The position numbers and the translations under genes are program-made. A model generated the notes under the pieces. It saw nothing but the letters and a program-made list of their open reading frames with translations, searched no databases and was not told the origin of the DNA. Positions 1 through 19,873 of a stretch of 19,873 bases of DNA are shown here, one piece after another (positions within the stretch are counted from its first letter, which is position 1; every line of letters starts with the position of its first letter). The stretch comes from an uncultured Deinococcales bacterium (GTDB lineage Bacteria; Deinococcota; Deinococci; Deinococcales; JAAFIG01), in assembly GCA_964247135.1 (NCBI GenBank), contig CAXTTL010000073.1:1-19873 (forward strand), read 5' to 3'.

Positions 1-219
1 GGAGCCCTTCTGCGGAGAGAGGCGATTTATTCTTCAACGCTCGCTTCCTTTCGAAAGCAATACGAGGAGGGAAAACTCCTCGCCAAAAACGCCCCCCTCC
101 GGGCAAAGCAGCGCAAGGACAGACAAGCCAAACGTCAGCACGACCAGCGGGCTTTCCAAGCCTTGCAACTCGAGGCACAAAACCTACTCGAGGCTCAGGG
201 TCAAGAAAAATTGGGTTAA
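1..219 (+). mobile_element. IS3-family transposase OrfA-like C-terminal fragment (5' end outside window; probably a remnant)
   Basis: Frame +1 is open from base 1: GALLRREAIYSSTLASFRKQYEEGKL...QEKLG*, TAA at 217-219. It matches the GALLRREGLYSSxLxxWRKQ motif of IS3-family OrfA HTH proteins. No OrfB/DDE ORF is recognisable downstream. Confidence 0.6.
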
Positions 220-493
220 AGCAGCTCTGCCCGAATTTGAGTACGCCAGAATTTTTTCCAGGGCGCGTTTGGTGCTTGCCCCAAGGTCGACCGTGTTCTC
301 AAACCGGAAGGCGATCAGCAACGCCGTGCTGGCTCGGCTCGCGCCGTTGTTCTTGCGTCCGGTCATGGCTGCCAGTTGGGTTTCACCGCCCGAGCCGTTC
401 CAAAACCGTCGGTTGCGCGGCTGAAACGCCTCGCCGCATGACTGCACGACGCAGATTGACGGGTTGTGAAAGCCAAATCAGATGACCAAGTTA

Positions 494-529
494 AAAGCCA
501 CAACGGTTGTTGCGTTTTTTCCTGTTTTT
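494..529 (+). terminator. possible weak intrinsic terminator
   Basis: Imperfect stem GCCACAAC-G-GTTGTTGC followed by TTTTTT and TTTTT runs. Confidence 0.3.
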
Positions 530-586
530 CCCCGCTCGAGCCTGCTAATCTAAGCTTGATCTTCCATTCAAGCCCGATTTAGAACC

Positions 587-1030
587 ATGACCACCACTTT
601 ACCCATGCCCAGTCTCGAGTTTGGAGCGCTGCAAAAAGCGCTCAGGCGTGCTTTATCGGACCACGAGATGACTTGGGAAAAGTTTGAGCTTGGCGCTCAA
701 CTCGCCAAACTCGAGGTCAGCGCTCAACTCGAGGATTTTTTGGAGGCGTTTGTGGCATCGCATCCGCGCCTTCGGGGCGGTCTGAAACGTTTTGAAGCCA
801 CCCGCGCTTGGGTTTCGCATCTGATTCTGGCATTGCTGCTCGCCTGGCACGCCCAGAACCATCCCGAACCTCGAGCCGATTGGGAGGCGCGTCCGTTCTC
901 GGTACGTGAATCGAGCCAATCAGAACGTGCGTTAATCACAGCTCGAGTCACGAATTTTTGGGGATTAAGTTTAAACTCGAGGTTGGTTCGTGTGCGTTCC
1001 TGTGTGGTTTGGGCGCAATTTTTGAGTTGA
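587..1030 (+). CDS. hypothetical protein
   Basis: 147-aa ATG ORF with a helical-looking N-terminal two-thirds. No family motif and no clear RBS; the C-terminal part looks non-coding-like. Confidence 0.4.
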   Translation: MTTTLPMPSLEFGALQKALRRALSDHEMTWEKFELGAQLAKLEVSAQLEDFLEAFVASHPRLRGGLKRFEATRAWVSHLILALLLAWHAQNHPEPRADWEARPFSVRESSQSERALITARVTNFWGLSLNSRLVRVRSCVVWAQFLS

Positions 1031-1085
1031 AATGCAGAGATGATGCTGGATTTCGATTCATCTTAAAACCGCGTTCAAGTCAGGA

Positions 1086-1111
1086 GTTGTCATGATTTGC
1101 ATCATGGCAAC
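1086..1111. promoter_or_regulatory. inverted repeat (operator or RNA hairpin) just upstream of the RBS of the flavoenzyme gene
   Basis: GTTGTCATGAT-ttgc-ATCATGGCAAC: 11-bp arms with one mismatch (G-U compatible). RBS GAGGGA at 1115-1120. Confidence 0.5.
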
Positions 1112-1129
1112 CTCGAGGGAGCAGTACAA

Positions 1130-2566: not shown

Positions 2567-2588
2567 ACCCTTAGGAAAGATGACATTC

Positions 2589-3107
2589 ATGGCAAATCAC
2601 GTCAGCCTTGAGCAGTCCAAGCTTGCCGATTTACAGATGAGCAACGGTGGAACGACGGTATTTCTGAGTGTTTTATTGCTGGCAGGAAGTGATCTTGCCA
2701 GCAGCGACTGGGAAAAAACCTTGATGGTTTGGCTCGCCGAAAAAGACCAAGCCGTGACCGGTTCGGGCGTTGTCGGCTTTGATCTTTCACAGATCAAATG
2801 GGATGCGGTTTCGTTTCTCGAGCAACAATCTTTTTTGTTAAAAGTGATCGATCTGGCACTCGAGCGTCACCGTTGGAGCGTTTTGGGTTACGAGCCTGGA
2901 CCAGACCAAGGTCAACCGTGGGTGCTGGATGATTTGCGGCATTTCAAAGTTCTTGTGACAGCTTTCAAACTAGAATACATCGAGGCTCGAGATTGGGATT
3001 TTAACGTTCAAGAAACCGATTTTCAAAAATGCCCCAAACATCAAATCTATCTGCATTCTTTAAACTCCGATCCGCTCGAGTGTTGCCTGATCTGCAATGA
3101 TTGTTAA
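2589..3107 (+). CDS. hypothetical protein with C-terminal CxxH...CxxC putative Zn site
   Basis: Closely follows the upstream gene. AGGA at 2573-2576 fits ATG 2589 (alternative 2580). Ends CPKHQIYLH...CCLICNDC. Confidence 0.75.
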   Translation: MANHVSLEQSKLADLQMSNGGTTVFLSVLLLAGSDLASSDWEKTLMVWLAEKDQAVTGSGVVGFDLSQIKWDAVSFLEQQSFLLKVIDLALERHRWSVLGYEPGPDQGQPWVLDDLRHFKVLVTAFKLEYIEARDWDFNVQETDFQKCPKHQIYLHSLNSDPLECCLICNDC

Positions 3108-3151
3108 GTTCTCACTTGCTCGAGTTGAGGGTTTTCTTTAGACTTGAAGCG

Positions 3152-3886: not shown

Positions 3887-3969
3887 AAACGTAGCGTCAG
3901 ACTTTGGGCAAAACAAACGGCGGACTGATAACATAATCGTTCAATGAACAAGCGAACAGGAATTGATTG

Positions 3970-5019: not shown

Positions 5020-5171
5020 AGCCCATTTGGCAGTCGTGGCTCGAGCGCTGGCAATAACATTTGCAAACCAGCCGCACACCCTCGAGCCGCGTTGGGGCGC
5101 TAGCGCAACTTCATCTCGAGAACTTCGGGGCGTATGCCATTTGGCGTATCTCGTGATTGCCAATTTTTGCT

Positions 5172-5204
5172 GTCACAGCCTGGTCACAGCAATCTTCGTA
5201 CCCT
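5172..5204 (+). promoter_or_regulatory. tandem direct repeat with 11-bp period (OmpR/PhoB-type box) plus -10-like TACCCT
   Basis: GTCACAGC at 5172-5179 and 5183-5190; TACCCT at 5199-5204; RBS AAGGAG at 5233-5238. Confidence 0.5.
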
Positions 5205-5246
5205 GATCTCGTTGCGAGCAGATTGCAACCTCAAGGAGACAAAATC

Positions 5247-6020: not shown

Positions 6021-6041
6021 AAACCCGAGGAGGTTTAAGCG

Positions 6042-6848: not shown

Positions 6849-6882
6849 TTTTAGGTCCACACGGCTCGAGCTTTAATCTCTG

Positions 6883-7569
6883 TCACAATAGGGTTCGCAA
6901 ACGCTCGAGTCCCTCGAGAATCAGGTCAAGCCCAATTTCAAACTCGCCCGCGTAACTGTAACCAGGTTTGAGCACGTGTTCAACGGCGATTTCCATCAGG
7001 TAGGGATATTCGCTTGGGGTCATCTGGACCATCATGGTTTCCAGAACATCGGCGGCTTGATCGGCGGTCTGAAATGGCAGGTTGATTTGCCCTAGGGCAA
7101 AGCCGTAAATGTAACTGTCCAGAATCGAGTAGGCGTGTGCCGTCGCCGCCACCGAGAAGCCGTTCGCCCTGAGACACTCCAGCACCGCGTTGTGATGTCG
7201 CAGGTTGGCAGCACCTGGGGCGGAGCGCGATTCCATCAGGCTGAGTGCCCATGGGTGCGCGATCAGTACCTTGAGGGCTGAAATCGCACGGTCACGCATG
7301 GCGCTTTTCCAGTTGTTTTCTTGGGTTGGCAGCTCGATCTGGGCAAACACCAGGTCGATCATGCCGTCCAGCAGCTCGACCTTGTTGGCAACGTGATGAT
7401 AGAGCGACATCGCCTCGACCCCAAGCTTCTGGGCAAGTTTGCGCATGGTCAGCGCATCGATGCCGTCTCGGTCTGCAAGCTCGAGGGCGGTTTTCAGCAC
7501 GGTTTGGCGGTTGAGCCTTGGGCGGGTTGCGGTCTTGGGGCTGCTCGGTTTTGTTGTCTTGCGTTGCAT
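6883..7569 (-). CDS. TetR/AcrR family regulator with TetR_C-type C-terminal domain
   Basis: [74 protein letters not shown]. Start is ATG 7569 or 7578, not 7617. Confidence 0.92.
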
Positions 7570-7585
7570 GTTCACCATTTCCCTC

Positions 7586-9732: not shown

Positions 9733-9753
9733 GCTTTTAAATCCTCCGTCAAA

Positions 9754-9781
9754 ATTATACGGCGTTTTGTCAGCGTGTCAT
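9754..9781 (-). promoter_or_regulatory. sigma70-type promoter for the VOC-SRPBCC operon
   Basis: Minus strand ATGACA-16nt-TATAAT, ending about 20 nt before the ATG. Contains a TGACA-N3-TGACA repeat. Confidence 0.55.
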
Positions 9782-9820
9782 ATGCAACGTTTCTGTCTCA
9801 AATTGCAGACTCGAGTCTTC

Positions 9821-9858
9821 AAACAAAAAACAAGAACACCAATTTAAATTGGTGTTCT
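9821..9858 (-). terminator. intrinsic terminator of the multidomain GH8 gene
   Basis: Perfect 26-bp palindrome AGAACACCAATTTAAATTGGTGTTCT at 9833-9858, followed on the minus strand by TGTTTTTTGTTT. Confidence 0.8.
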
Positions 9859-9898
9859 CGAGAATCGTTTGGCTTTAAGGTCTAAAAGACTTCGTGGT

Positions 9899-12304
9899 TT
9901 AAGGTGTGAATCGAAGCCAATTGATTTTGGCTGCACCCGTTACCGTGACATAAACATCCTGCAATCCTGTGGGTTTGGTCGGCAGAAAACAGGTGTTCGA
10001 TTTGGTTTCCCAAGTGCCGCCACCTGCGGGGTAGACAGTGCAAAATACCGTGGCGGTTTGGCTGCCAATGCGAATTTGCAGGTTCGTGCCAAAACCTGGC
10101 GTGTTGGTGCGAAATTCGACCGAACTTGCACCCGTCGTTCCAAAGTTCACAGCGTTCAAAACAATGTAGCTGCTCGAGCTTGCCAAATTCGCCACGCTGC
10201 CGCCGTCGCCTGCTTCAATGGTCGCACCTGATTGCGCGTTAAAACTTTCTGCCTCGAGCACACTGTAGGCATCGCGGTTGCTGGTGTTCACGCTCGAGGT
10301 GGTGGCGCTGGTTTCGTTGCTGTAACCCGAATCGCCCGTGGCGTTGGTGGCGCGAACGCGGTAGGTGTATGTGGTGCTGGCGGTCAAGGCAGAATTATTG
10401 TAGGCGGTGACGCCTGCACCCACCGTGGCAATTTGGGCATACGCGCCCGTACCCGTTTTGCGCTCGAGCTTAAACCCGATTTCGTTGCTACTGTTGTCCA
10501 CCCAAGTCAAATTGATTTGGCTCGAGGATGCCGCACTGCCGGTCAAACTCGAGGGCGCGGCGGGAATGGTATTTGTTACTGTACCTGGAGCGTAAATTTT
10601 AAAATTGCCCGTGATGTGCAACATGCCCATAAACGCCAGCAAGTCGTTGTAATAACGGTACGCGCCAGTCTCGAGGTTTGAGTTCCAGAAGGCTTCAACA
10701 AATTTCCAAGCCACGGCATTGTTGCTCGAGAGTGTGCTTGCGGCGTTCATGGCAACCAATCCCACGGAGTGGTCGGTGTTGAATGGCGTGCTGTCCGTCC
10801 ACTTAAAATTGTTGCCGTAAGTGTTGACCCCTTGCGCATCAAAAAAATTCAGAATGCGGTTGGACAGCGTGACTGCATTGTTGCCGCTCGAGGGATTCTT
10901 TGCCCACCAGGCGTTGTCTACCGCCCAGTTCATGGCGGTGCGCCAAGCATCGAACCTGAAGTCTTGATGGTCGCCGCAACAGTGTGGTGCGCCGTTAAAA
11001 TCGGCATAATCTGGGGCTAAACCGTTGGCGTTGGTGGTCTGCGAAAAGTACAGTCGGCTGCGAGTAGCGGCATCTTTCCAGAATTGGCGGTCTTGGGTTT
11101 GTTGTCCATTGTATCCCGTTGCCCACAATCCCCAGAGTTCGTAAAAGGCTGGCAAATGATACGACGGGTCGGAATAACTGGCGCTGAGGTTGTCTGGACT
11201 GAACACTGCCATCTTGTTGGTTGGGTCAAACAAATTGTGATAGCTGTTGACCACGCCGCCGTTCTGGTCTTCTTTGTGCAACATGGCGTTCAAAATAGTG
11301 TTGGCTTGAGCCGTGTAATTGTAAATACCCGTGCCATTGCCCCAACGGTTGCCCGCAAAAAACAAAGCGGTCGTATAATATTCTTCGCCGTCTGGGGCAG
11401 GGTTGGGATCAATTACGCTGTGGTCTGGTCGCACGCGCCAAGCAAAATGTCCAGCGCGGTATCCGGTGGTGTTGAGCATGTAACTTTGCGACCAATTCCA
11501 GATTGCGTCAAACACGGCTTTTTGGTTCATCTGCACGGCGATCATCATGCCGTAAGACATGCCCTCGCTGCGCACGTCCATGTCTGTACCCGCGCTTTGC
11601 CCTTCGTTGTAAATATAACCCAGTGCGCCATTGGCATTGCTACCATCGGGGTAATACACGCGTTTGGTGTTGTCGGTGCTGACAAACAATTGATCCCAAT
11701 AGGCACTAAGTTTTGCTGTGATCTGCGCATCGGTGATGCTCGAGTTCCATTCTTTGACCATGTTGCGGTAGACACCGCTGGCATACGCGCCCGTGCTCGA
11801 GGGTGTGGGTGGTGGCGGTGGTGGCGGTGTTGTCCCCTCGTAAGCGATTTCGTACCAGTCGATGAACGTGTCGTTGCTGCCGTTGTCCGTCTCGAGCTTC
11901 AGCCGAATTTCTTTGCTGCCAGAGGTGGCAAGGTCAAAACTTTGGCTGGCACTGGCGAATGCCGTGCCTATAAAATTCAGGGCTGCCACTTTTGCCCCAG
12001 CCACGTAAACGCTGATGCCTGCGGCGGAAGCGTTGCTCGAAGCGCCGCGAACCGTGACTGTAAAGCGTCCCGTTTGCGCGAAAGTGTACGAATTAAAAGT
12101 TGCATCGTTGTTGCAGTAATACGAGACGGTGGTTGCGCCAATGCCCGTGCAACCGCCACCGTTGGTCATGGTTTCGGCTTCTTGATGCGTTAATAAAGTT
12201 GCTCGAGTTTGAACGGTGATGCTCGAGTTTTGGGTTTGCTGTCCGCAACCGACCAATACGAGTGTGCCGATTGCCATGCCGAGAATCCAGGTTCGTAGCT
12301 TCAT
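9899..12304 (-). CDS. multidomain GH8 glycoside hydrolase lipoprotein (CBM36-like / Pro linker / GH8 / FN3 / CBM6-like), probable xylanase
   Basis: Lipobox LVGC; CBM36-like EAETM...VRGASSN...TDNGSNDTFIDWYEI; PPPPPPPTP linker; GH8 motifs DVRSEGMSYGM, PAPDGEEY, DPSYHLPAFY, FRFDAWR and YRYY; FN3 (PAAPSSL...LTWVDNS...YTYRVRATN); CBM6-like RDAYSVLEAESF...VNFG. RBS AGGAGG. Confidence 0.93.
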   Translation of the reverse strand: MKLRTWILGMAIGTLVLVGCGQQTQNSSITVQTRATLLTHQEAETMTNGGGCTGIGATTVSYYCNNDATFNSYTFAQTGRFTVTVRGASSNASAAGISVYVAGAKVAALNFIGTAFASASQSFDLATSGSKEIRLKLETDNGSNDTFIDWYEIAYEGTTPPPPPPPTPSSTGAYASGVYRNMVKEWNSSITDAQITAKLSAYWDQLFVSTDNTKRVYYPDGSNANGALGYIYNEGQSAGTDMDVRSEGMSYGMMIAVQMNQKAVFDAIWNWSQSYMLNTTGYRAGHFAWRVRPDHSVIDPNPAPDGEEYYTTALFFAGNRWGNGTGIYNYTAQANTILNAMLHKEDQNGGVVNSYHNLFDPTNKMAVFSPDNLSASYSDPSYHLPAFYELWGLWATGYNGQQTQDRQFWKDAATRSRLYFSQTTNANGLAPDYADFNGAPHCCGDHQDFRFDAWRTAMNWAVDNAWWAKNPSSGNNAVTLSNRILNFFDAQGVNTYGNNFKWTDSTPFNTDHSVGLVAMNAASTLSSNNAVAWKFVEAFWNSNLETGAYRYYNDLLAFMGMLHITGNFKIYAPGTVTNTIPAAPSSLTGSAASSSQINLTWVDNSSNEIGFKLERKTGTGAYAQIATVGAGVTAYNNSALTASTTYTYRVRATNATGDSGYSNETSATTSSVNTSNRDAYSVLEAESFNAQSGATIEAGDGGSVANLASSSSYIVLNAVNFGTTGASSVEFRTNTPGFGTNLQIRIGSQTATVFCTVYPAGGGTWETKSNTCFLPTKPTGLQDVYVTVTGAAKINWLRFTP

Positions 12305-12527
12305 AAAACCTCCTGATGTTTTGTGGCTCGAGATTGAAATGCTCTTTGAGTAACGGATTTAATTTGATTGAATACTCGAGTTTTGACAATGGTTGACCAC
12401 AACCTCAAAACTTGAAGCTCGAGATTCTTGTTGGTTGTTCGTGCGTTAAATGATTTGAAATAAGAATAATTTTGCTCTTGGAATATATGAAAACCTTGCA
12501 ATACCCATGCCTCGAGTTTTAAAGAAC

Positions 12528-13850
12528 CTAAATGTTCTTGGGGGCGTAAATCTTGTACGCTCCCGCATTGTTCAGCAAGCCAAAAAAGTACAGCAAACCA
12601 GAGTAATAACGGTATTTGCCCGTTGGAATTTGGGCTTCCCACAACGCTTGGCTAAACTTGTAAGCTCGAGCATTGGTGGCGGCAAGGCTGGCGGTGGCGA
12701 GCATTCCAATGTGCCCAGCGTCGTGATAATTGTCTTGTGCGACGCCAGTCAGGGTGTAGACGTTGTGAAAGCTGTTGATGCCCTCTTTGTCCATGAAGGT
12801 TTGAATACGATCTGCCCAGGTTTTCTCGAGGTCTTGGGCTGCAAACCAGGCGTAATCCACAGCCCAGTTCATGGCGACCCGCCAGGCATCGTAGGCATAA
12901 TTGTTGTTGCCGTCGTTGGGGTTAAGTTGTTTGGGTGTGCCATCAAAATTGCTGTAATTTGGGCTTAAACCAGTGCTTGGGTGAACCGCTTTGCCAAACA
13001 ATTCGTTGCGGCTGGTGCTGGCGATGCTTGCCCAACGCGCACGGTCTGATTGTTGGTCGGTATAACCAGCCGCAAACCTCGAGAACAAATCGTAAAACGC
13101 GGCGACATGATAGCTCGGGTCGGTAAAACCATTCAGGTTGGCGTTGGTGCTGGGCACAAAAACGACTTGGTTGGCAGTTCCAAACATGTTGCTGATACCG
13201 CCGACAATGCCGCCGTTCATGTCTTCTTTATGCAGCATCACATTTAAAATGTTATTGGCTTGGGCTTGATAATCGAAAATGCCAGCGCCATTGCCCCAAC
13301 GACCTGCCGCAAAAAACAATGACATTGCAAAGTATTCCTCGCCGTCGGGGGCGGCATTGTTGTCTAGTTTTGTGCCCTCAGGGCTGCAATGCCAAGCAAA
13401 ATAACCTTGGCTCGAGCCACTGGCGTGCTGCATGTTGGTTTTTGCCCAGTTCCAGATGGCGTTAAACTGAGTTTGCTTGTCCATCTGCACCGAGATCATC
13501 ATGCCGTAAGACATGCCTTCGGTACGCACGTCGTTGTCGGCTGGGTTTAAAATATAGGCGAGAGCGCCGTTGCTGTTGCTGCCTGCTGGGTAATACAGGC
13601 GCTGGTTGTCGTCGGTGCTCTCAAAAAATTGATTCCAGGTATCAACAAGTCTGGTTTGGATTTGGGCTTGGCTCAAACTCGAGTTCGACTCTTGAAACAA
13701 ATTGCGGTACACGCCCGTGCTGAATGCGCCTTGGCTTGGTGGTATCGGCTCGAGCACGCTGGGCTTGGAATTGACGGCACAGGCGCTCAAACTCGAGATC
13801 ATGATTGCCCCGATCAGTTGGAAAAAGTGGTTTGAAGCTTTGAATTTCAT
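12528..13850 (-). CDS. single-domain GH8 glycoside hydrolase lipoprotein (xylanase / oligoxylanase clade)
   Basis: Lipobox LSAC; DVRTEGMSYGM, AAPDGEEY, DPSYHVAAFY, YAYDAWR and KYRYY; RBS GGGAG. Confidence 0.93.
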   Translation of the reverse strand: MKFKASNHFFQLIGAIMISSLSACAVNSKPSVLEPIPPSQGAFSTGVYRNLFQESNSSLSQAQIQTRLVDTWNQFFESTDDNQRLYYPAGSNSNGALAYILNPADNDVRTEGMSYGMMISVQMDKQTQFNAIWNWAKTNMQHASGSSQGYFAWHCSPEGTKLDNNAAPDGEEYFAMSLFFAAGRWGNGAGIFDYQAQANNILNVMLHKEDMNGGIVGGISNMFGTANQVVFVPSTNANLNGFTDPSYHVAAFYDLFSRFAAGYTDQQSDRARWASIASTSRNELFGKAVHPSTGLSPNYSNFDGTPKQLNPNDGNNNYAYDAWRVAMNWAVDYAWFAAQDLEKTWADRIQTFMDKEGINSFHNVYTLTGVAQDNYHDAGHIGMLATASLAATNARAYKFSQALWEAQIPTGKYRYYSGLLYFFGLLNNAGAYKIYAPKNI

Positions 13851-13877
13851 GTTTCACTCCCGCAATACAACTTTAAT

Positions 13878-13897
13878 TTTTGAAAACGTTGTCAAAA
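13878..13897. promoter_or_regulatory. LacI-type operator upstream of the GH8 genes
   Basis: TTTTGAAAACGTTGTCAAAA, a near-perfect palindrome with central CG, 28 nt upstream of the GH8 start. Confidence 0.8.
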
Positions 13898-14120
13898 TCT
13901 TAGGTGGTCAAATTCACAACGCGAAAGACTCGGATAGAGGGTTTGACTTTAAAGGCTCGAATTGAGATTGCCTGAGACCCAACACATTTACGTGTCTATA
14001 TAGACGCATATACGATGAATTCCGAACGAAATCGGTTCTTCAAGCCATTTGATTTTGGTGCTGTCGCCCAATATACATACCAAAAGGCTCAAGTGCAAGC
14101 CCCGATCTTCTCGAGAAGTC

Positions 14121-14136
14121 TTGACAACGATTTCAA
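14121..14136. promoter_or_regulatory. LacI-type operator upstream of the first LacI gene (degenerate)
   Basis: TTGACAACGATTTCAA fits the TTGAMARCGNTKTCAA consensus of the other sites. Confidence 0.6.
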
Positions 14137-14207
14137 GATTCGTTAAACTCTCCCCAGCCAAAAAAACAACATCCTGCTTCGCAATGCTTTGTGCTCTAAA
14201 CTGACGT

Positions 14208-15227
14208 ATGTCTGAAAGGTCTTTCGTGTCCAATCCTGTCACCCTTACCCAAGTTGCTCGAGCCGCTGAGGTTTCACCCAGCACCGTCTCGAGAATTTTG
14301 AACGGTACGGCAGTTGTCAACGAAGCCAAACGACGGCGCGTTCAAGAGGTGATTGCACGTCTTGGCTACAGCCCAAATGTCATGGCGCAAAGCCTCAAAA
14401 CTGGGCAGAGCATGAGTATTGGCGTATTAACCCAAGAACTCGATAGTTTGTTTTACGGCAAAACCCTCAAAGGCATCGAGATCGGTTTGTCCGAAAGCAG
14501 CTACCACCCGCTTTTTGTTGGTGGTCACTGGCAAGAACGCGACGAACTCGCGTCACTCGAGGCTTTAAGTCGCCGTCGGGTCGATGCCCTGATTGTGCTC
14601 GGTGGTCTGACCAGCGATGCGCAACTCTTAACACTTTCAAAGAACCTGCCTGTGGTGGCGGTCAGCCGAGTGATTCCAGGACTCGAGGCGCAGTGCATCA
14701 GCATCGACAACAAACACGGCGCGTTCGAGGCGACCAAGCACCTGCTCGAGTTGGGGCATCGGCGCATTGCGCATCTGACTGGTCCTTTAAGCCGTCAAGA
14801 TGCCCGAGAGCGACTTGAAGGTTACAAGTTGGCGTTGGCTCAGGCTGGGGTTTCTTTTGATGAAAGCTTGTTGTGCGAGGGCGATTACAACGAACAATCT
14901 GGGGTACTGGCAATGGATGCCCTCTTGGCTCGAGGTTCGCGGTTTACAGCGGTTTTTGCCGCCAATGACGGCATGGCACACGGCGCAAGACTGACCTTGT
15001 TCAGACGTGGGATTCGCGTTCCAGAAGACATTTCACTGATTGGTTTTGATGACCTTCCAACCGCACGTTTTTCGATTCCGCCGCTCACCACCGTGCGTCA
15101 ACCAATGTTCGAGATGGGACAGGCGGCGGCACAACTGATTTTGATGTTGCTCGAGGGTCGTGAGCCAAAATTGCCAAAGCTTTCCACCGAATTGATCGTC
15201 CGCGAGTCCACAACTTTACCCCGCTAA
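14208..15227 (+). CDS. LacI family transcriptional regulator
   Basis: TLTQVARAAEVSPSTVSRILNG HTH, LGYSPNVMAQSL hinge, LGHRRIA, RVPEDISLIGFDD, PPLTTVRQP, LIVRES. TAAACT lies 5 nt before the ATG (leaderless-like). Confidence 0.95.
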   Translation: MSERSFVSNPVTLTQVARAAEVSPSTVSRILNGTAVVNEAKRRRVQEVIARLGYSPNVMAQSLKTGQSMSIGVLTQELDSLFYGKTLKGIEIGLSESSYHPLFVGGHWQERDELASLEALSRRRVDALIVLGGLTSDAQLLTLSKNLPVVAVSRVIPGLEAQCISIDNKHGAFEATKHLLELGHRRIAHLTGPLSRQDARERLEGYKLALAQAGVSFDESLLCEGDYNEQSGVLAMDALLARGSRFTAVFAANDGMAHGARLTLFRRGIRVPEDISLIGFDDLPTARFSIPPLTTVRQPMFEMGQAAAQLILMLLEGREPKLPKLSTELIVRESTTLPR

Positions 15228-15266
15228 ACAAGCTGTTTTTTGAAGTGATCAATATTTTTTTGCAAT

Positions 15267-15290
15267 AGTTTTGAAAACGTTTTCAAAACT
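15267..15290. promoter_or_regulatory. LacI-type operator upstream of the beta-barrel/lipoprotein operon
   Basis: Perfect 24-bp palindrome AGTTTTGAAAACGTTTTCAAAACT. Confidence 0.85.
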
Positions 15291-15394
15291 GTGTTGGACA
15301 AGGAGAACACTACAAGAATTTGACTCAAAACCATTGACCCTCGAGAAAGCCAAATCATCAAGCGTCAAAAGAACCAATTCAAACAAGGAGCACC

Positions 15395-16171
15395 ATGAAA
15401 TTAAAAATCAGCCTACTCGTAAGTATCATCGTCCTGATCGGCTTGTCCACGTCAGGTTATGCCCAACGCATCGACGGTTTTGCCCAAGTTGGCATCTCGA
15501 AGGGTTACAGCATTTTTGGAGCCTTACAAATCGCCTTTGATCTGGTCAAAGACGTGACTTATGGCACACGCATCGAACTGGCATTTGTCGATGGAAACAA
15601 CAACTCAAACGACAACCCGAAACTCGAGCTTCAACCCTACATCTCTTACGACACACCCATTGCCAGCGATGCCAGCTATTACGTCTCTGGCGGCGTGACC
15701 TTGCGCACTTATGCTCGGGTGTTCTCGAAGATCAGCAACAATACCGTGGGCGTGGATTACGACCTGTCATTGCGTTTACAACCGTCCATCAACGCCAACA
15801 TTGCCATTGCTCCAGGCTGGCGGGCTTATGGCGGCACGGGCGCAGGCTTGCAATTTGGTTTGCTGCCCAACCCAGGCATTCTGTACTCGTTCATTTACGT
15901 TTACGGCTTTGCCAAAGGTGACCTCTCGAGCTTGCTGCCCAATTTGGAGGCGGTCATTGGTGGCGGCGCGAGCAGCAGCTTTGACAGCAATTTCAAACTC
16001 AACGACCCCGCCATTGGCGCGTCTGTTTACGGGGCACTCGAGTATCAACTCGGAGGCGGTTTGGCACTGCGCTTTGAAACTGGTTATTCGACGGGCAACA
16101 GCAGCGTCAGTTATGACACCGTGGAATCAAACGGTTTTTACGTGTTCTTGCGCGGATCATTCCGCATTTAA
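15395..16171 (+). CDS. secreted hypothetical protein, predicted outer-membrane beta-barrel
   Basis: RBS AAGGAG; SPI signal peptide ending GYA-Q; many alternating amphipathic strands rich in G/Y/F (YGTRIELAF, LELQPYISY, WRAYGGTGAGLQF, ASVYGALEYQL, LALRFETGY); terminal strand FYVFLRGSFRI. Confidence 0.75.
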   Translation: MKLKISLLVSIIVLIGLSTSGYAQRIDGFAQVGISKGYSIFGALQIAFDLVKDVTYGTRIELAFVDGNNNSNDNPKLELQPYISYDTPIASDASYYVSGGVTLRTYARVFSKISNNTVGVDYDLSLRLQPSINANIAIAPGWRAYGGTGAGLQFGLLPNPGILYSFIYVYGFAKGDLSSLLPNLEAVIGGGASSSFDSNFKLNDPAIGASVYGALEYQLGGGLALRFETGYSTGNSSVSYDTVESNGFYVFLRGSFRI

Positions 16172-16181
16172 AGGAGTATTT

Positions 16182-17087
16182 ATGAAAAGAATTTCTGTTT
16201 TAGCCCTGGCATTCGCCACCATCCTTAGCGCCTGCGGTCAAGATGTTGTGACCGTCGGTAAACTCACCGTTAACATTTCTGGATTGCCTGGTGGTTCTGC
16301 CCCAAGCGTTGCCGTGACTGGACCCTCGAGCTTCACCAAAACCCTTACCGCAACCGTCACCCTCGAGAATCTGACTCCTGGCACGTACACGATCACGCCA
16401 GCCAAAGTCGCGGTTGCCGCCGACAATTACACGGCTGCCACCGCCACCGCCTCCGTCACGGCTGGGAACACCGCCAGCAGCAATGTGGTCTACTCGAAGG
16501 CTGCCCCAGTTGAGGTCACGCTGGCTTTTGCCGACTTTACGGGCGGCGCAGCAGACTCGAGCACCCAGGGTGGGAAATTCACAAATTACAGTTATCACGG
16601 CAGTGGTGTTGCCACAATTGCCACAGGTCAACCAGTGAAAGGCACAGATAAGTTATCGGCTGATTACACCCTCGGAGCAGGTGATTTTGGTGGCGTTGCG
16701 CTGGGCGTAGATGCCAACGCGACGGCTCAACCAATCGATTTGACTGGCTATACCAAACTCCGAATCAAAATGGCACGCTCTGGTGGCGGCTCTCTCAGCA
16801 TTAAAGTCGTCGGTAATGAAAAAGCTGTTCAAGACAGCGGTTGTTATCCTGTCTATCAAGCCACACCTGGCGATGACGGCGGATTTGCAGTCACAAACAC
16901 ATTGGCTGAATACACACTCGATTTGAGTCAATTCAATTACCGCAGCTATTGCAGTGCTCCAAATCGCAAGACTCTTGCCGAAACCATTAATAACGTCATC
17001 CGCGTCGAAGTCGAGGATCGTTTCTTGCCAAGCACTGGCAGCGAAAACCGCACGATAACCTTGGGCAGCATCACGTTCGTGAAGTAA
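16182..17087 (+). CDS. lipoprotein: Ig-like spacer plus CBM11/CIA30-like carbohydrate-binding domain
   Basis: RBS AAGGAG then ATG 16182; lipobox LSAC; GKLTVNISGLP...VTGP...LENLTPGTYTIT (Ig-like); jelly-roll motif FGGVALG...IDLTGYTKLRIKM...GCYPVY...YTLDLSQF...TLGSITFVK. Confidence 0.82.
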   Translation: MKRISVLALAFATILSACGQDVVTVGKLTVNISGLPGGSAPSVAVTGPSSFTKTLTATVTLENLTPGTYTITPAKVAVAADNYTAATATASVTAGNTASSNVVYSKAAPVEVTLAFADFTGGAADSSTQGGKFTNYSYHGSGVATIATGQPVKGTDKLSADYTLGAGDFGGVALGVDANATAQPIDLTGYTKLRIKMARSGGGSLSIKVVGNEKAVQDSGCYPVYQATPGDDGGFAVTNTLAEYTLDLSQFNYRSYCSAPNRKTLAETINNVIRVEVEDRFLPSTGSENRTITLGSITFVK

Positions 17088-17100
17088 CCAAAAACGTTTG

Positions 17101-17126
17101 GTTGTGGAATCTCGAGATTCCACAAC
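17101..17126. repeat. perfect 26-bp intergenic palindrome centred on CTCGAG
   Basis: GTTGTGGAAT-CTCGAG-ATTCCACAAC. Confidence 0.9.
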
Positions 17127-17150
17127 TGACAAACCTTGAAGGAGGTTTTT

Positions 17151-17873
17151 ATGAAATATGCCGTTCTCATCGCAATCGGCGCTGTGAGCCTCGCCTCGTG
17201 CGCTCCAATGAATGCCAAACCTGCAACGCCTGCTGCCGCACCAACTTCGGTGGCAACAGCACCAGCAACTCCAGTCGCCCCAGCCGCAACGACCACTCCT
17301 GCGGCAACTCCTGTCGCATCAGACGCCAACGTTTTAACTTGGGCAACTTTCGAGAATAGCGACGCCAACGCAACCGCTCAGGCGGGTAAAATCGAAACCA
17401 ATGCTTACAGCGAAAAACCGAACGATGCCAGCAAAGAAAATCCAGTTCGAGAGAACAGCAATGCCGTTTTGAATTACATGCTGACCAAAGCGGGCGGCAG
17501 CAGTTTCTTGGGCGCAGGCATGACGATCAACGCACCAAAAAATGGCACGTTTGACCTCTCGGGCTTTAAAAGTATGCGCATCAAACTTTCCTCGAGCGCC
17601 AGCACCGTGGTGCGTTTGCGGATTTCTGGGGCGGACACGGCAACCCAAAACAACGGCTGCTATCCGGTGCGTTACACCAAAGTCACGGACAAACTCGAGT
17701 CGTACACGGTTGCGATTTCGGAATTTGCGCCAGAATCGTATTGCAGCGCGAACGCCCGCAGCTTGGCGCAAACCCTGCCTGGTGGCGCGGTGGTTGAGAT
17801 TGCCGACAACGAAGTGCCGAGCAGCCCACGCAAGGGCAAAATCAGCATCTCGAGCATCGAATTTTTGAAGTAA
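17151..17873 (+). CDS. lipoprotein: Pro/Ala/Thr linker plus CBM11/CIA30-like domain (paralogous to the upstream lipoprotein domain)
   Basis: RBS AAGGAGG then ATG 17151; lipobox LASC; PATPAAAPTS... linker; FLGAGM...FDLSGFKSMRIKL...GCYPVRY...YTVAISEF...SISSIEFLK. Confidence 0.82.
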   Translation: MKYAVLIAIGAVSLASCAPMNAKPATPAAAPTSVATAPATPVAPAATTTPAATPVASDANVLTWATFENSDANATAQAGKIETNAYSEKPNDASKENPVRENSNAVLNYMLTKAGGSSFLGAGMTINAPKNGTFDLSGFKSMRIKLSSSASTVVRLRISGADTATQNNGCYPVRYTKVTDKLESYTVAISEFAPESYCSANARSLAQTLPGGAVVEIADNEVPSSPRKGKISISSIEFLK

Positions 17874-17892
17874 TTTGGATTTTTTAAGGACA

Positions 17893-17920: not shown

Positions 17921-17937
17921 CATATGTTCCAAAACTC

Positions 17938-17953
17938 TTGACAGCGCTTTCAA
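17938..17953. promoter_or_regulatory. LacI-type operator overlapping a -35 TTGACA upstream of the second LacI gene
   Basis: TTGACAGCGCTTTCAA; GATACT -10-like box at 17961-17966 (17-nt spacer). Confidence 0.75.
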
Positions 17954-18082
17954 AACCTGCGATACTTCGCTCATCGTTTGATTCAAAACACGTTGCCGCC
18001 TTAAACCAAATTGGTTTCAGCACGGCTTGCGCCCTCGAGAAATCGCGTCTTTCACGGCTTAAAGCCGTCTTACGGAGTTTGT

Positions 18083-19099
18083 GTGCCTGAAGTCAAAACC
18101 CTCAGTGATGTTGCCACCATCGCCCAAGTTTCACCGAGTACCGTCTCGAGAATCTTGAACGGTACGGCGGTGGTTGCCAAGGACAAACGCGAACGGGTTT
18201 TGAAAGTGATTCAAGAACTCAATTACCGTCCAAACGTGATCGCCCAAGGTCTGGCACGCGGGCAATCGATGACCATCGGTGTGGTCACGCAAGCCATCTC
18301 GAGTCCGTTTTACGGCGAGGCGCTGGCGGGGGTCGAGGAGGGTTTGGAGGGCAGCGGTTATCATGCGCTGTTTGCCAGCGGACACTGGCGGGTCAACGAA
18401 GAGCGCGAAGCCCTCGCCTTGCTGACCAGTCGTAGGGTAGACGCGATTATTTTGACCGGCTCGAGCATTCCAGACCTTGAATTGCAGCAACTTGCCAAAA
18501 CCTTGCCGGTGGTCATTGTCGGGCGAACCGTTCCAGGCTTGGAGAACAACTGCATCAGCGTTGACAACCGTGTCAGTGGCGCTTTGGGCATCCAGCATTT
18601 GATCTCCTTGGGGCATCGCCAAATTGCTTACATCTCTGGTACGGCGACAGTACAGGGCGATGCCACCGAAAGGCTCGAGGCGTACCGTTCGACGCTGAAA
18701 AAAGCGGAGATCAAATACGACCCCAATTTGGTGATTGAAGGCGATTATCAAGAGCGATCTGGTTTGTTTGGAATTGAAACGCTGTTTGCCAGGGGCGCGA
18801 TTTTTACCGCCGTCGCCTGTGCCAACGATCAGTCCGCCTACGGGGTGCGCCTGGCATTGTACCGCCGAGGAATTCGTGTTCCAGACGATGTTTCCTTGAT
18901 CGGTTTCGATGATCTGCAAGCCTCGGCGTACACCACTCCCCCACTCACCACGGTACGTCAACCGATTGTCGAAATGGGTAAACTCGCCTCGAGAATGGCG
19001 CTTTCAATTTTGCGCGGCGCACCGTTCAAACCAAGTCCAATTCCTGGCGAACTGGTGATTCGTGAATCAACCGCCGTCCTGCGCGGCGCTCGAGCTTAA
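18083..19099 (+). CDS. LacI family transcriptional regulator (paralog of 14208-15227)
   Basis: GGAG RBS at 18074-18077 then GTG 18083; TLSDVATIAQVSPSTVSRILNG, NYRPNVIAQGL, LGHRQIA, RVPDDVSLIGFDD, PPLTTVRQP, LVIRES. Confidence 0.95.
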   Translation: MPEVKTLSDVATIAQVSPSTVSRILNGTAVVAKDKRERVLKVIQELNYRPNVIAQGLARGQSMTIGVVTQAISSPFYGEALAGVEEGLEGSGYHALFASGHWRVNEEREALALLTSRRVDAIILTGSSIPDLELQQLAKTLPVVIVGRTVPGLENNCISVDNRVSGALGIQHLISLGHRQIAYISGTATVQGDATERLEAYRSTLKKAEIKYDPNLVIEGDYQERSGLFGIETLFARGAIFTAVACANDQSAYGVRLALYRRGIRVPDDVSLIGFDDLQASAYTTPPLTTVRQPIVEMGKLASRMALSILRGAPFKPSPIPGELVIRESTAVLRGARA

Positions 19100-19157
19100 C
19101 CGAGATTGTCAACAAGGGAGGGGTTATGAACTTCAAAAAGTTGGATTCTTCATAATT

Positions 19158-19171
19158 TGAAAGCGCTTTCA
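19158..19171. promoter_or_regulatory. LacI-type operator upstream of the ABC binding-protein gene
   Basis: Perfect palindrome TGAAAGCGCTTTCA, directly after a CATAAT -10-like box at 19151-19156. Confidence 0.85.
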
Positions 19172-19231
19172 CAACCATTCGGCATGTCAACACCCCGCCC
19201 TCTCAGTCCACTTTAGACACAGGAGACAGAA

Positions 19232-19873
19232 ATGAAAAAAGCAATTGCCCTGGGAAGTATCGGATTTTTGATTGCCGCAGGCGTCGCCACGCTGGCATTG
19301 GCACAAAACAACAAAATTGAACTGACCGTTGCCGCTTTCCCAAGCTTGGATGATTCGGTCAAAGTTGCCCTTGCGGGCTTTGCCAAGAAATTCCCCAACA
19401 TCGAAATCAAACTGACCGCCCTGCAATACGGCGATCACCACGCCGCCCTGACCACCGCACTGGCAACCGGTCAAGGCTTGCACGATGTCGAAGCCATCGA
19501 AATCGGTTTTGTCGGCAAATTCGCCGAATCACAAGGCTTGGAAGACCTGAATGGACCCAGCTACAACGCCAATCAATACAAGAAACTGCTCGTGCCTTAC
19601 ACCGTCGCCCAAGCCACCTCGAGCGACGGACGCTTTATCGCCATGCCCTGCGACATCGGTCCTGGAACCACCTTTTACCGCAAAGACATTCTGGACAAAG
19701 CTGGCATCAAACCGAGCGACCTGAACACCTGGGAAGGTTACGTCGAAGCCGGCAAGAAATTGCACGCCAGCAACAACAAAATTTTCATGATTAACAGTGC
19801 AGCCAGCGCCGCGAACTTGATCATCCGCTCGAACTTGGCTTCTGGCGAGGGCATTTACTTTGATTCCGCCAAC
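19232..19873 (+). CDS. carbohydrate ABC transporter substrate-binding protein (family 1), truncated by the window end
   Basis: Not in the ORF track because it has no stop codon. RBS AGGAG, then MKKAIALGSIGFLIAAGVATLALAQNNKIELTVAAFPSLDD...FAKKFPNIEIK...YGDHHAALTTALATGQGLHDVEAIEIGFVGKFAESQGLEDL...AMPCDIGPGTTFYRKDILDKAGI...TWEGYVEAGKKL. Resembles beta-glycoside/cello-oligosaccharide-type SBPs. Confidence 0.9.
   Translation, partial: MKKAIALGSIGFLIAAGVATLALAQNNKIELTVAAFPSLDDSVKVALAGFAKKFPNIEIKLTALQYGDHHAALTTALATGQGLHDVEAIEIGFVGKFAESQGLEDLNGPSYNANQYKKLLVPYTVAQATSSDGRFIAMPCDIGPGTTFYRKDILDKAGIKPSDLNTWEGYVEAGKKLHASNNKIFMINSAASAANLIIRSNLASGEGIYFDSAN

Follow-up and report, generated by a model that had tools for sequence, protein, structure and literature searches.

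HIP1 (GCGATCGC) and the alternate highly iterated palindromes (HIPs) of cyanobacteria are dispersed, GC-rich palindromes that are not part of a longer repeat and that are reported to be 15- to 300-fold over-represented in their hosts (Elhai 2015, PMC4390886; Xu, Lawrence and Durand 2018, PMC5861425; Rodriguez-Cruz et al. 2026, PMC13756078). Their density is given as near one per kb (Elhai 2015, PMC4390886), the chromosomal distribution of HIP1 is described as having a 10-90 kb periodicity (Xu et al. 2018, PMC5861425), and DmtA and DmtC are named as HIP1 methylases in a study that now proposes HIP1 itself as an uptake signal (PMC13756078). The hexamer CTCGAG of an uncultured Deinococcales bacterium resembles HIP1 in several traits: it is a dispersed, GC-rich palindrome outside any longer repeat, it lies both within and between reading frames, it is conserved beyond background and lineage-wide, and it has no established function. 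It differs in its host, which belongs to Deinococcota and not to Cyanobacteria, in its length (6 letters versus 8), in its density (~6.7 per kb versus near one per kb), in its large effect on the proteome, and in that no candidate cognate methylase was found to be common to the family. At short range its placement is Poisson-like, whereas the periodicity of HIP1 concerns the 10-90 kb scale.

Other systems share some of these traits. The uptake words of Pasteurellaceae (USS) and Neisseriaceae (DUS) are short words that build up across the whole genome, in genes as well as spacers, bias the peptide composition and are enriched after genes; they are asymmetric, 9-12 bp long and present about once per kb. 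According to Maughan, Redfield and colleagues, uptake words can reportedly accumulate by molecular drive alone, through biased uptake and recombination. CTCGAG is like these words in its presence in genes and spacers, its peptide bias, its enrichment after genes and the occurrence of ComEC in its host, but it is a 6-bp palindrome found at 6.66 per kb. To our knowledge, Thermus and Deinococcus are competent without an uptake word. In E. coli, Dcm/Vsr very-short-patch repair at CCWGG corrects mismatches in a way that shifts word frequency towards the methylase target; it acts at a single position, depletes T-containing neighbours and has an effect far smaller than that seen for CTCGAG, of which all positions behave alike and of which the neighbours CTTGAG/CTCAAG are not depleted. 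Finally, CTCGAG is the very word recognized by the XhoI and PaeR7I restriction-modification systems. Restriction normally leads to avoidance of the recognition site, an expectation that fits a Deinococcus-like sister family (f3; 128-457 sites per genome), whereas the family studied here shows the opposite bias.

The stretch of DNA analyzed (19,873 nt; hereafter, the window) contains 106 CTCGAG sites, or 5.3 per kb, in agreement with the ~105 counted by hand in the initial annotation. Dinucleotide-preserving shuffles of the window gave a mean of 3.01 sites (sd 1.89, maximum 10), and 0 of 200 shuffles reached 106. The over-representation described in the initial annotation is therefore real, while its magnitude had been set too low: 20-fold with about 5 sites expected has become ~35-fold with 3.01 expected. 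Sites occur in all three codon frames, as had been observed; using approximate gene calls, we assigned 46 to CTC GAG, 29 to xxC TCG AGx and 13 to xCT CGA Gxx, with 18 outside called genes. The three intergenic clusters singled out earlier are all real as well, with 3, 2 and 4 sites in the respective spacers (Table 1). The last of these would be expected to hold ~0.02 sites by arithmetic from its composition. The base of the best terminator-like hairpin of the window coincides in part with the site at 9857, and the spacer at 5020-5156 follows a solute-binding/ligand-gated channel gene (3967-5019). The accessory block has only short, weak matches in five genomes of the same genus, yet it is rich in the word.

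Table 1. CTCGAG features of the 19,873-nt window.
Feature	Coordinates	CTCGAG sites	Context
Full CTCGAG span	169..19623	all 106 window sites	
Spacer cluster	5040..5120	5040, 5081, 5115	137-bp spacer 5020-5156
Close pair	6904..6918	two sites 9 bp apart	within a minus-strand TetR-family gene (6883-7617)
Spacer cluster	9810..9862	2 sites	166-bp spacer 9733-9898, 39% GC, flanked by two minus-strand genes
Accessory block	9760..17760	45 sites in 8.0 kb	two GH8 glycosidases, LacI regulator, unknown genes
Spacer cluster	12327..12516	12327, 12375, 12418, 12511	223-bp spacer 12305-12527, 36% GC, between two GH8 genes

Across the whole genome, 33,925 CTCGAG sites were counted, i.e., one per 150 bp. The genome-wide hexamer comparison proposed in the initial annotation showed CTCGAG to be the commonest of all hexamers, at 24.75 times its zero-order expectation, and every contig longer than 5 kb (297/297) carries the word, at 2.6-10.5 sites/kb. 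In coding DNA, as delimited by approximate gene calls made within the analysis, we found 27,507 sites compared with 3,866 +/- 38 in a shuffle that preserves protein sequences and per-gene codon usage, and the excess thus does not vanish under such a null. All three frames lie 5.7-13.9 times above this synonymous-shuffle null (CTC GAG, 17,252 versus 3,030; xxC TCG AGx, 6,211 versus 544; xCT CGA Gxx, 4,044 versus 292). Short spacers (n=2,076) are the densest compartment, with 9.35 sites/kb at 46% GC, or 45 times expectation. The over-represented unit is the bare hexamer, without a longer repeat; its flanks are only weakly informative, with no single base exceeding 39% at any flank position, and the commonest 12-mer around the site has 218 copies among the 33,925 sites. 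We are highly confident of the descriptive part of this analysis.

The excess of CTCGAG has shifted protein composition in favour of Leu-Glu. This dipeptide is more over-represented in the proteome than any other, with an observed/expected ratio (O/E) of 2.35 compared with 1.02 for Glu-Leu, and 77% of Leu-Glu dipeptides (17,252/22,438) are encoded as CTCGAG. By arithmetic, ~13,000 Leu-Glu dipeptides are present beyond the composition-based prediction.

All 18 other genomes of this uncultured Deinococcales family carry 4.3-6.8 CTCGAG sites/kb, and one of them is a closed contig of 5.09 Mb, which rules out an assembly artefact. The best FtsZ matches are to Deinococcus (66-69% identity), Truepera/Trueperaceae (62-64%) and Meiothermus (59%). 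The suggestion that enrichment may be lineage-wide, Meiothermus-like genomes included, holds in part: in sister families, Meiothermus and Trueperaceae among them, the same DNA-level excess is present in weaker form (1.4-3.1 sites/kb), and Deinococcus-like genomes avoid the word. Over the sister families there is a gradient from near-total avoidance through 4-9x to 25x. Thermus-like genomes and high-GC viral contigs have 1-6 sites/kb with GAGCTC equally common, a pure codon effect. We found no published report of CTCGAG hyper-abundance in this clade in the literature searched. These data constitute an independent and denser HIP-like case in a second phylum, HIPs having until now been confined to cyanobacteria.

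Sites are retained and gained more often than the background would predict. In a relative with 85% overall identity, 1,603 of 2,050 sites (78.2%) are identical, compared with 45.3% for all hexamers, and CTCGAG ranks first in conservation among 1,151 hexamers. The comparison with HIP1 made in the initial annotation is borne out in this respect too: both are dispersed, hyper-abundant palindromes in all frames and in spacers, and CTCGAG is the most conserved hexamer at orthologous positions. Turnover was polarized with three genomes over 72.7 kb, by parsimony on a star-like three-taxon tree in which parallel changes are miscounted, and 129 of 1,059 ancestral instances were lost compared with 411.9 expected (0.31), the loss model's own calibration being 0.85 in coding and 0.71 in non-coding DNA. 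Loss proceeds at ~0.35 times the background rate, or about three times more slowly, in genes and spacers alike (non-coding, 12/111 versus 48 expected). Gains exceeded expectation at each distance from the ancestor: 14 versus 6.2 at one difference, 13 versus 1.43 at two and 8 versus 0.18 at three, a rate of 2-45 times background, whereas eight unrelated control words had 0-3 gains at distance 2. New copies also arose via two or three simultaneous changes and via amino-acid changes. Both retention and accelerated gain were therefore seen in the ortholog comparison that had been suggested. The bias derived from these rates (gain x2.3, loss x0.35) is ~6.6, below the standing excess of 25-45x.

With respect to placement, each copy appears to be favoured independently of its neighbours. 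The number of sites per kb follows a nearly Poisson distribution (Fano factor 1.11), density is even along CDS, and the O/E is steady at 24-26 across 2-kb windows ranging from 35% to 70% GC; these are short-range statistics, the largest contig seen in the assembly being 66 kb. Spacings divisible by 3 are enriched (15,577 versus 8,988 and 8,974 for the other two classes). Lost and kept sites have the same distance to their nearest neighbour (median 89 versus 90 bp, p = 0.40). Gained sites lie slightly farther from existing sites than do random positions (median 76 versus 61 bp, p = 0.03), with a random-position control that is biased because sites cannot overlap; a requirement for spacing might lie behind this. 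Genome-wide, 12-14 sites/kb are found in the 40 bp that immediately follow stop codons, roughly double the usual density, a feature that uniform drive does not predict.

We tentatively favour, at a little short of an even chance, the interpretation that CTCGAG is a HIP-type iterated palindrome, maintained by directional pressure at the DNA level that would be either molecular drive or very weak per-site selection. Slow loss, fast gain, Poisson placement and constant enrichment together form the pattern of such a process. A CTCGAG-reading protein that acts in DNA exchange or repair may impose the bias, by one of two routes that we consider about equally likely. Heteroduplexes or mismatches would be corrected towards the motif (biased gene conversion), or motif-rich self DNA would be preferentially taken up or recombined. 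We infer both routes, having identified no candidate CTCGAG-reading protein. Judging by gene content, the pressure appears to be independent of any conserved XhoI-type methylase. A ComEC domain is present in the genome (E 4e-45, in a 768-aa open frame); for the uptake route this is no more than a necessary condition, and the domain is also found in the Deinococcus and Thermus controls. Thermus is not known to show sequence preference in DNA uptake, and this would make the uptake route less likely in the order. Between drive and selection, the positional conservation of HIP1 has been read as favouring selection over replenishment through biased repair (Xu et al. 2018, PMC5861425); as CTCGAG positions are conserved, that argument could apply here too.

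The sites might instead be bound by an abundant nucleoid or chromosome-organising protein and kept by ordinary selection for a cellular function, which we regard as unlikely. A 6-bp palindrome would suit a dimeric DNA-binding protein, one site per 150 bp would be a plausible density for a nucleoid protein, and a nucleoid role has been argued for HIP1 (Xu et al. 2018, PMC5861425). The top rank of CTCGAG in hexamer conservation, non-coding DNA included, and the slightly wider-than-random distance of gained sites would also be consistent with this role. Spacing is irregular, however, losses show no preference for redundant sites, enrichment over the local expectation stays at one constant factor and leaves GC-poor DNA uncompensated, and no candidate nucleoid protein was identified.

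An orphan methyltransferase of XhoI specificity, with biased repair, had been put forward in the initial annotation; methylation would then create or exploit the sites, either by way of methyl-directed or biased repair or as an epigenetic mark, and we consider this improbable. The idea has been proposed for HIPs, where an abundant HIP is said always to be accompanied by a methylase of matching specificity (Elhai 2015, PMC4390886), and hot-spring methylomes are described with methylated CTCGAG and TCGA common to one host-phage group, whose phylum is left unnamed in the text available (10.64898/2026.06.24.734251). Enzymes of CTCGAG type do circulate in the order, with the XhoI endonuclease family PF04555 and a beta-class SPPY methylase partner in 5/23 genomes of sister family f4, and the present genome encodes ~12 methylases whose specificities are not readable from sequence. 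Gene content within the family is nevertheless unsupportive. PF04555 was found in 0/19 family genomes, the present one included, and so was an ortholog of the XhoI-partner methylase (best match, 43% identity over 86 residues). No methylase class or ortholog group was found common to all 19 genomes, 18 of which are incomplete. Among the 18 other family genomes, G015 lacks beta-class, C5 and gamma-class methylases, the closed genome G011 lacks the beta class, G008 lacks C5 and G006 lacks D12 methylases, and the TaqI-type recognition domain occurs in 6/18. Apart from a gamma-class protein of 1,499 aa on C112, each predicted methylase of the present genome has an endonuclease partner or a patchy distribution in relatives. 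The genome has NgoPII, Eco29kI, MvaI/BcnI, SacI-like and NotI-like pairs, together with MmeI-like enzymes and an HsdM-like protein. The C36 methylase has clear orthologs in 2/18 other family genomes, the C207 methylase has orthologs in 4/18, and the C4 SPPY methylase has orthologs in 3/18, two of them with stop codons. Only one D12 group has been inherited across genera, as a restriction cassette; in the present genome, the NgoPII pair takes its place at the same locus. A Vsr-type, single-position repair drive was rejected, given that it needs depleted CTTGAG/CTCAAG. These deamination-type neighbours have an O/E of 1.17 (TTCGAG/CTCGAA, 1.74), and differences between genomes at the sites are spread equally over positions 1-3.

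Chi sites are likewise short, genome-wide over-represented words that separate self from foreign DNA, and a Chi-like signal that tames a RecBCD/AddAB-type nuclease would protect motif-rich self DNA while motif-poor foreign DNA is degraded. A protein of ~935-990 aa with a PD-(D/E)XK domain occurs in the present genome and some relatives, but PDDEXK_1 was found in only 10/18 other family genomes; the closed genome G011, G007 and G008 have no match at E <= 1e-5. Chi sites known to date are asymmetric words that follow the direction of replication, as a palindrome cannot do, and we know of no Chi site near 25x or one per 150 bp; a Chi-like role is thus very improbable. Lastly, a by-product of codon and amino-acid usage (CTC for Leu and GAG for Glu being preferred), of a longer repeat or of assembly has virtually no chance of being correct, for although the CTC GAG frame accounts for 63% of CDS sites and codon effects alone give the densities of Thermus-like genomes and viral contigs, it is already refuted by the shuffle (the other two frames lying 11-14x above their nulls), the weak flanks and 12-mer counts, the density of spacers, the 0 occurrences of the mirror word GAGCTC, which uses the same codons, and the recurrence of the trait in nineteen independent assemblies.

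The role of HIP1 has been open for about thirty years. To this question the CTCGAG system adds three features missing from HIP1: a gradient from avoidance to 25x, measurable turnover and, as no cognate methylase is obvious, a means of telling an iterated palindrome apart from a methylase target. The gradient enables one to ask which gene families vary along with motif density within the order, and in the family, motif density distinguishes resident from recently imported DNA. With an XhoI site every 150 bp, the word is also a practical concern when cloning from these genomes. The Leu-Glu excess shows how far a DNA-level pressure can rewrite proteins. In a more far-reaching and rather doubtful scenario, the palindrome would be independent of methylation: a dedicated CTCGAG reader protein would bias repair or DNA exchange and spread the word family-wide by drive, Thermaceae-like and Trueperaceae genomes would tolerate a weaker form, and Deinococcus-like genomes would purge it, presumably by CTCGAG-specific restriction, such that the word would also hinder the flow of genes from one family to another. 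If this is true, restriction in Deinococcus-like genomes would shred the DNA of their motif-rich relatives, and the order would provide the first system in which the origin of a HIP-like word can be studied along a gradient.

The palindrome CTCGAG occurs 106 times in the window, between positions 169 and 19623, whereas in 200 dinucleotide-preserving shuffles of the window the mean was 3.01 (sd 1.89) and the observed count was never approached. According to approximate gene calls, 46 of these sites are read as CTC-GAG, 29 as xxC-TCG-AGx and 13 as xCT-CGA-Gxx, and the remaining 18 fall outside the genes called. Each of the three spacer clusters singled out by the initial annotation was found; one of them puts four sites into a spacer of 223 bp and 36% GC. 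The gene content is that of an ordinary heterotroph (GH8 glycosidases, LacI and TetR regulators, solute-binding proteins and a dehydrogenase) and offers no clue to the abundance of the motif. Positions 9760-17760 are accessory DNA in which the motif is almost as dense as usual, with 45 sites over 8.0 kb, and neither this block nor 5050-6890 had a long match in any of five same-genus genomes. Elsewhere in the window, the start of a 261-aa ATPase gene overlaps the end of a 175-aa ORF of unknown kind, and the two could form a small defence or toxin-antitoxin-like pair.

The source assembly, G000, comprises 5.09 Mb in 386 contigs, with a rated completeness of 84%, and the window is its contig C73. 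CTCGAG is the commonest hexamer of this genome, with 33,925 occurrences (one per 150 bp, 24.75 times the zero-order expectation), and every contig above 5 kb (297 in all) has it, at 2.6-10.5 sites per kb. The repeated unit is the bare hexamer: no single base exceeds 39% at any flanking position and the most frequent 12-mer has 218 copies. A maximal-order Markov model gave an observed/expected ratio (O/E) of 1.24, an uninformative value, since most occurrences of the constituent 5-mers come from the motif itself.

A simple model based on codon statistics called 4,475 genes (83% coding), and synonymous codons were shuffled within each gene so that protein sequences, all dipeptides and the codon usage of the gene were kept. 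Coding sequences contained 27,507 CTCGAG sites compared with 3,866 ± 38 after shuffling, and the excess was seen in all three frames (CTC-GAG, 17,252 vs. 3,030; xxC-TCG-AGx, 6,211 vs. 544; xCT-CGA-Gxx, 4,044 vs. 292). The motif has already inflated the codon usage kept in the shuffle, which makes this null a generous one. In 2,076 short spacers of 30-300 bp, the density was 9.35 per kb at 46% GC, or 45 times expectation. The initial annotation had named a codon- and dipeptide-preserving null as the comparison under which the excess might disappear; given the results in coding sequences and spacers, the enrichment does not vanish.

The turnover of sites was followed in alignments with other genomes of the family. 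When 400 kb of the same-genus genome G005 was aligned with G000 (313.5 kb at 85.2% identity), CTCGAG was identical at the orthologous position in 1,603 of 2,050 cases (78.2%, vs. 45.3% for all hexamers), ranking first in conservation among the 1,151 hexamers that occurred 100 times or more, and its one-step neighbours CTTGAG and CTCAAG were among the least stable (17.6% and 11.8% conserved). Single differences at the sites were nearly all transitions, with 54, 71 and 51 at positions 1, 2 and 3, so that no one cytosine stands out. Addition of syntenic contigs of G004, a third species and likewise of the same genus, produced a three-way alignment of 72.7 kb with a star-like tree, all pairs being 86-87% identical, in which 310 sites were common to all three genomes, 129 were missing from just one and 94 were present in just one. 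The state shared by two genomes was taken as ancestral, and the changes expected were computed using background rates for the same base, substitution type and codon position. Losses affected 129 of 1,059 ancestral sites against 411.9 expected, or 0.31 of expectation, whereas the same model gave ordinary hexamers a ratio of 0.85 (coding DNA) or 0.71 (non-coding DNA); relative to these, CTCGAG is lost at about 0.35 in both compartments (non-coding losses, 12 of 111 vs. 48 expected).

Gains were also in excess, with 14 of 277 ancestors one difference away converted to CTCGAG (6.2 expected), 13 of 2,726 two differences away (1.43 expected) and 8 of 13,246 three differences away (0.18 expected). 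At distance two, each of eight unrelated control words had 0-3 gains where 0.9-2.8 were expected, and words overlapping or flanking CTCGAG showed motif-like gain behaviour. Several gains altered amino acids, such as CGCCAG to CTCGAG, which occurred three times. The flanks of multi-step gains were more divergent (0.105 vs. 0.070), but the same held around multi-step losses (0.094); the difference reflects rate heterogeneity and does not serve as evidence for import.

Along genes, site density is flat (6.05-7.36 per kb across 20 bins), and it about doubles, to 12-14 per kb, in the first 40 bp past stop codons. A role in building terminators was discarded, since of the window's 23 terminator-like hairpins just 1-2 touch the motif. 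Counts per kb are near Poisson (mean 6.66, variance 7.42), and enrichment relative to local composition is constant at 24-26-fold in 2-kb windows from 35% to 70% GC. Gaps of at least 1.3 kb without a site numbered 32 against 5.3 expected and were mostly low-GC islands of 27-40% GC. Five motif-free stretches of 1.7-2.6 kb and 27-33% GC, in a genome of 52.6% GC, are probably recently acquired DNA; a self-BLAST of the assembly for IS copies returned no repeats of at least 500 bp. Lost and kept sites had the same distance to their nearest neighbour (median 89 vs. 90 bp, p = 0.40), and gains tended at most slightly toward sparse regions (76 vs. 61 bp, p = 0.03, with a control that is skewed since sites cannot overlap). 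This is the pattern of a pressure by which every site has its chance multiplied independently of the others, with no requirement for a fixed spacing.

FtsZ was used as the taxonomic marker, RNA polymerase beta being absent from the assembly. Its identity was 66-69% to Deinococcus, 62-64% to Truepera/Trueperaceae, 59% to Meiothermus and near 50% to all else, and these marker identities therefore place the source organism in an uncultured family of the Deinococcus-Thermus group. Within that family, the 18 other genomes, from five genera, all carry 12,028-35,442 CTCGAG sites (4.3-6.8 per kb), including 23,515 in the one closed genome, G011. Around ftsZ in named relatives, the O/E was 0-1.4 in Deinococcus, 3.1-7.5 in Trueperaceae and 4.5 in Meiothermus luteus. 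Samples of 80 kb were also compared from each of five genomes in the four other families (f2-f5). Those of f5, f4 and f2 had 1.4-3.1 sites per kb (1.5-3.7 times the synonymous shuffle), 1.2-1.95 per kb in non-coding DNA and a Leu-Glu O/E of 1.18-1.53. The Deinococcus-like family f3 had a single site in its 80-kb sample and just 128-457 per genome in G020, G024 and G028; as the XhoI endonuclease family was found in none of 26 f3 genomes, this avoidance would presumably have to be enforced by another enzyme. The suggestion that the enrichment may be lineage-wide was thus partly right, in that a weaker DNA-level excess extends across the order, but the study family is extreme and f3 does the opposite. 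A closed 2.3-Mb genome of f4 (G021) encodes an XhoI-family endonuclease convergent with a beta-class SPPY methylase and has 2.2 CTCGAG per kb, 6.5 times expectation, so enrichment coexists there with the presumed cognate restriction system.

About twelve DNA methylase genes were found in G000, most of them in recognizable systems (Table). Its restriction pairs fit its word statistics, GGCC (380), CCGCGG (11) and GAGCTC (0 in 5.09 Mb) all being scarce. GAGCTC, the mirror word, occurs 3-25 times in most genomes of the family, and no new instance arose from 495 one-off ancestral instances (11.8 expected). The SacI-like pair is 72-81% identical in the closed genome, of another genus, and looks like a restriction system kept over a long time. 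In all three of G000 (whole), G005 (400 kb) and G004 (about 130 kb), 25 palindromes had an O/E below about 0.1, among them CTAG, GGCC, GGATCC, CTGCAG, CAGCTG, CGTACG, GCATGC, AGATCT, GTCGAC and TCGCGA, a number far exceeding that of the restriction systems in any one genome.

Features of the window and of the genomes compared (G000, genome holding the window; G004 and G005, aligned genomes of the family; G011, closed genome of the family; G021, closed genome of family f4; L, genome region)
Feature	Location	Content	Recognized word
ATPase gene	window 3101-3886	261-aa AAA_21/AAA_15 ATPase, AbiEii-like family match	
Accessory block	window 9760-17760	two GH8 glycosidases with CBM6/fn3 domains, LacI regulator, genes without known function	
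Cassette site, G000	C14:36003-37983	NgoPII endonuclease and C5 methylase	GGCC
Cassette site, G005	L203	D12 methylase and 397-aa endonuclease-like protein, ESK motif	
Cassette site, G004	L205	D12 methylase and 397-aa endonuclease-like protein, ESK motif	
Eco29kI pair	G000 C178	Eco29kI and C5 methylase	CCGCGG
MvaI/BcnI pair	G000 C189	MvaI/BcnI and beta-class methylase	
SacI-like pair	G000 C320:1061-2985	SacI-like endonuclease (29.7 bits) adjoining D12 methylase	GAGCTC
NotI-like pair	G000 C207	NotI-like endonuclease (25.4 bits) and beta-class methylase	
MmeI-like enzymes	G000 C192, C21	two enzymes	
HsdM-like protein	G000 C169		
Gamma-class protein	G000 C112	1,499 aa	
Neighbour of C36 methylase	G000 C36	1,002-aa protein	
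C4 methylase (P0001)	G000 C4:28577-29977	466-aa DNA amino-methyltransferase	
Motif-free stretch	G000 C13:11892-14536		
Motif-free stretch	G000 C70:14167-16418		
Motif-free stretch	G000 C13:4757-6745		
Motif-free stretch	G000 C20:7985-9673		
Motif-free stretch	G000 C1:102560-104482		
C5 methylase operon	L062, G011:C1:4978000-4988000	C5 methylase, HD-CE protein, ORC/Cdc6-like ATPase, 313-aa unknown protein	
XhoI-type pair	L058, G021:C1:73699-77256	XhoI-family endonuclease, SPPY beta-class methylase	

No methylase class was present in every one of the 18 other family genomes, in a set of 19 of which 18 are incomplete. Gamma-class methylases were found in 17 (none in G015); the TaqI-type recognition domain in six; beta-class in 16 (none in G015 or the closed G011); C5 in 16 (none in G008 or G015); and D12 in 17 (none in G006). 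As a family-wide driver, the C36 beta-class methylase was rejected for a distribution limited within the family to clear orthologs in G002 and G007, the others belonging to two outside genera, g13 and g6; the C207 enzyme for having 80-81% orthologs in four of 18, beside its NotI-like neighbour; and the C4 SPPY methylase for being found in three of 18, two of the copies (L212 in G005, L213 in G012) having internal stop codons. In the C4 protein, the AdoMet motif comes first and SPPY about 200 residues on, and Pfam DNA-methylase models just graze the sequence. Recurrent proteins of ~500 aa with weak Eco57I-family matches, which at first resembled a conserved orphan, proved to be type I HsdM subunits with 24-29% mutual identity, and a ~650-aa gamma-class group with the TaqI-type domain, from six genomes, has an overlapping partner of ~250 aa and no match in G000. 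A ~285-aa D12 group is inherited vertically across genera (88%, 69% and 58-62% identity by genus); it was discounted because it has a conserved partner of 365-397 aa with an ESK motif, and the NgoPII pair takes its locus in G000, which has one of the highest CTCGAG densities of the family. Flanked by sua5 and a gene for a nucleoside hydrolase, this locus is a site of swappable restriction-modification cassettes. Among words depleted just in carriers of the D12 cassette, the lone result was GGCGCC, which has no adenine and so permits no inference on the target.

The XhoI endonuclease family was found in none of the 19 family genomes and in five of 23 from f4, where its partner is a 340-aa beta-class SPPY methylase; the best match to this partner in the family was 43% over 86 residues, not an ortholog. 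In the closed G011, the methylases comprise one C5 and one Type ISP enzyme, three HsdM proteins and two enzymes of the D12 class; one of the last two adjoins a SacI-like endonuclease 72% identical to the G000 copy. Its C5 enzyme lies in an operon that looks like a defence system rather than a plain restriction-modification pair. With patchy candidates and no universal class, the predicted gene content lends no support to a conserved form of the orphan XhoI-type methylase that was one proposal of the initial annotation.

As far as the accessible portions of the sources go (PMC4390886, PMC5861425, PMC13756078), the closest known system is HIP1 of cyanobacteria, together with the alternate HIPs. 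CTCGAG shares four descriptive properties of HIPs, but differs from HIP1 in phylum, word length and density, in the apparent lack of a cognate methylase and in its Poisson placement, and it is therefore classed as a variant of the HIP kind, not a member. A full-text search of main texts outside subscription journals found no prior report of CTCGAG hyper-abundance in bacteria; the nearest items were a 2026 preprint (10.64898/2026.06.24.734251), whose accessible part lists CTCGAG as methylated in communities of hot springs, and an m5C motif of Halorubrum. The novelty is to be taken with care. Viral contigs with tight CTCGAG triplets were set aside: the matches listed were mostly of 63-72% GC with GAGCTC as common as CTCGAG, and so give no information on phages of the Deinococcales lineage.

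Taken as a whole, CTCGAG is under a directional, DNA-level pressure that acts per site, by which it is both retained and gained at an accelerated rate, independently of coding constraints and of neighbouring sites. Such a pressure could arise by molecular drive, or by selection that acts very weakly on each site, through a protein that reads CTCGAG in repair or DNA exchange; heteroduplexes might be corrected towards the motif, or motif-rich DNA might be preferentially taken up and recombined. We hold this class of mechanism tentatively, at a little short of an even chance. Its weak points are that no candidate for the reading protein was found in this analysis, that the bias calculated from turnover rates (about 6.6) is below the standing excess, and that it does not account for the excess past stop codons. 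A selected role in protein binding, as in the nucleoid, is rather unlikely, and a role linked to methylation appears somewhat less likely again, but may still apply, as sequence alone does not give the specificity of a methylase. An uptake signal would need competence genes, and ComEC is present in G000, but equally in Deinococcus and Thermus controls. A Chi-like role would need RecBCD or AddAB, whereas PD-(D/E)XK matches were found in 10 of the 18 other family genomes and not in G011. Vsr-type repair towards CTCGAG would deplete the T-neighbours, which are not depleted (O/E 1.17 for CTTGAG/CTCAAG and 1.74 for TTCGAG/CTCGAA).

Of the 22,438 Leu-Glu dipeptides encoded in G000, 17,252 (77%) are spelled CTCGAG, whereas codon usage predicts about 11%. 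The Leu-Glu pair is also the most over-represented dipeptide, with an O/E of 2.35 against 1.02 for Glu-Leu. The pressure on CTCGAG extends to the proteome.
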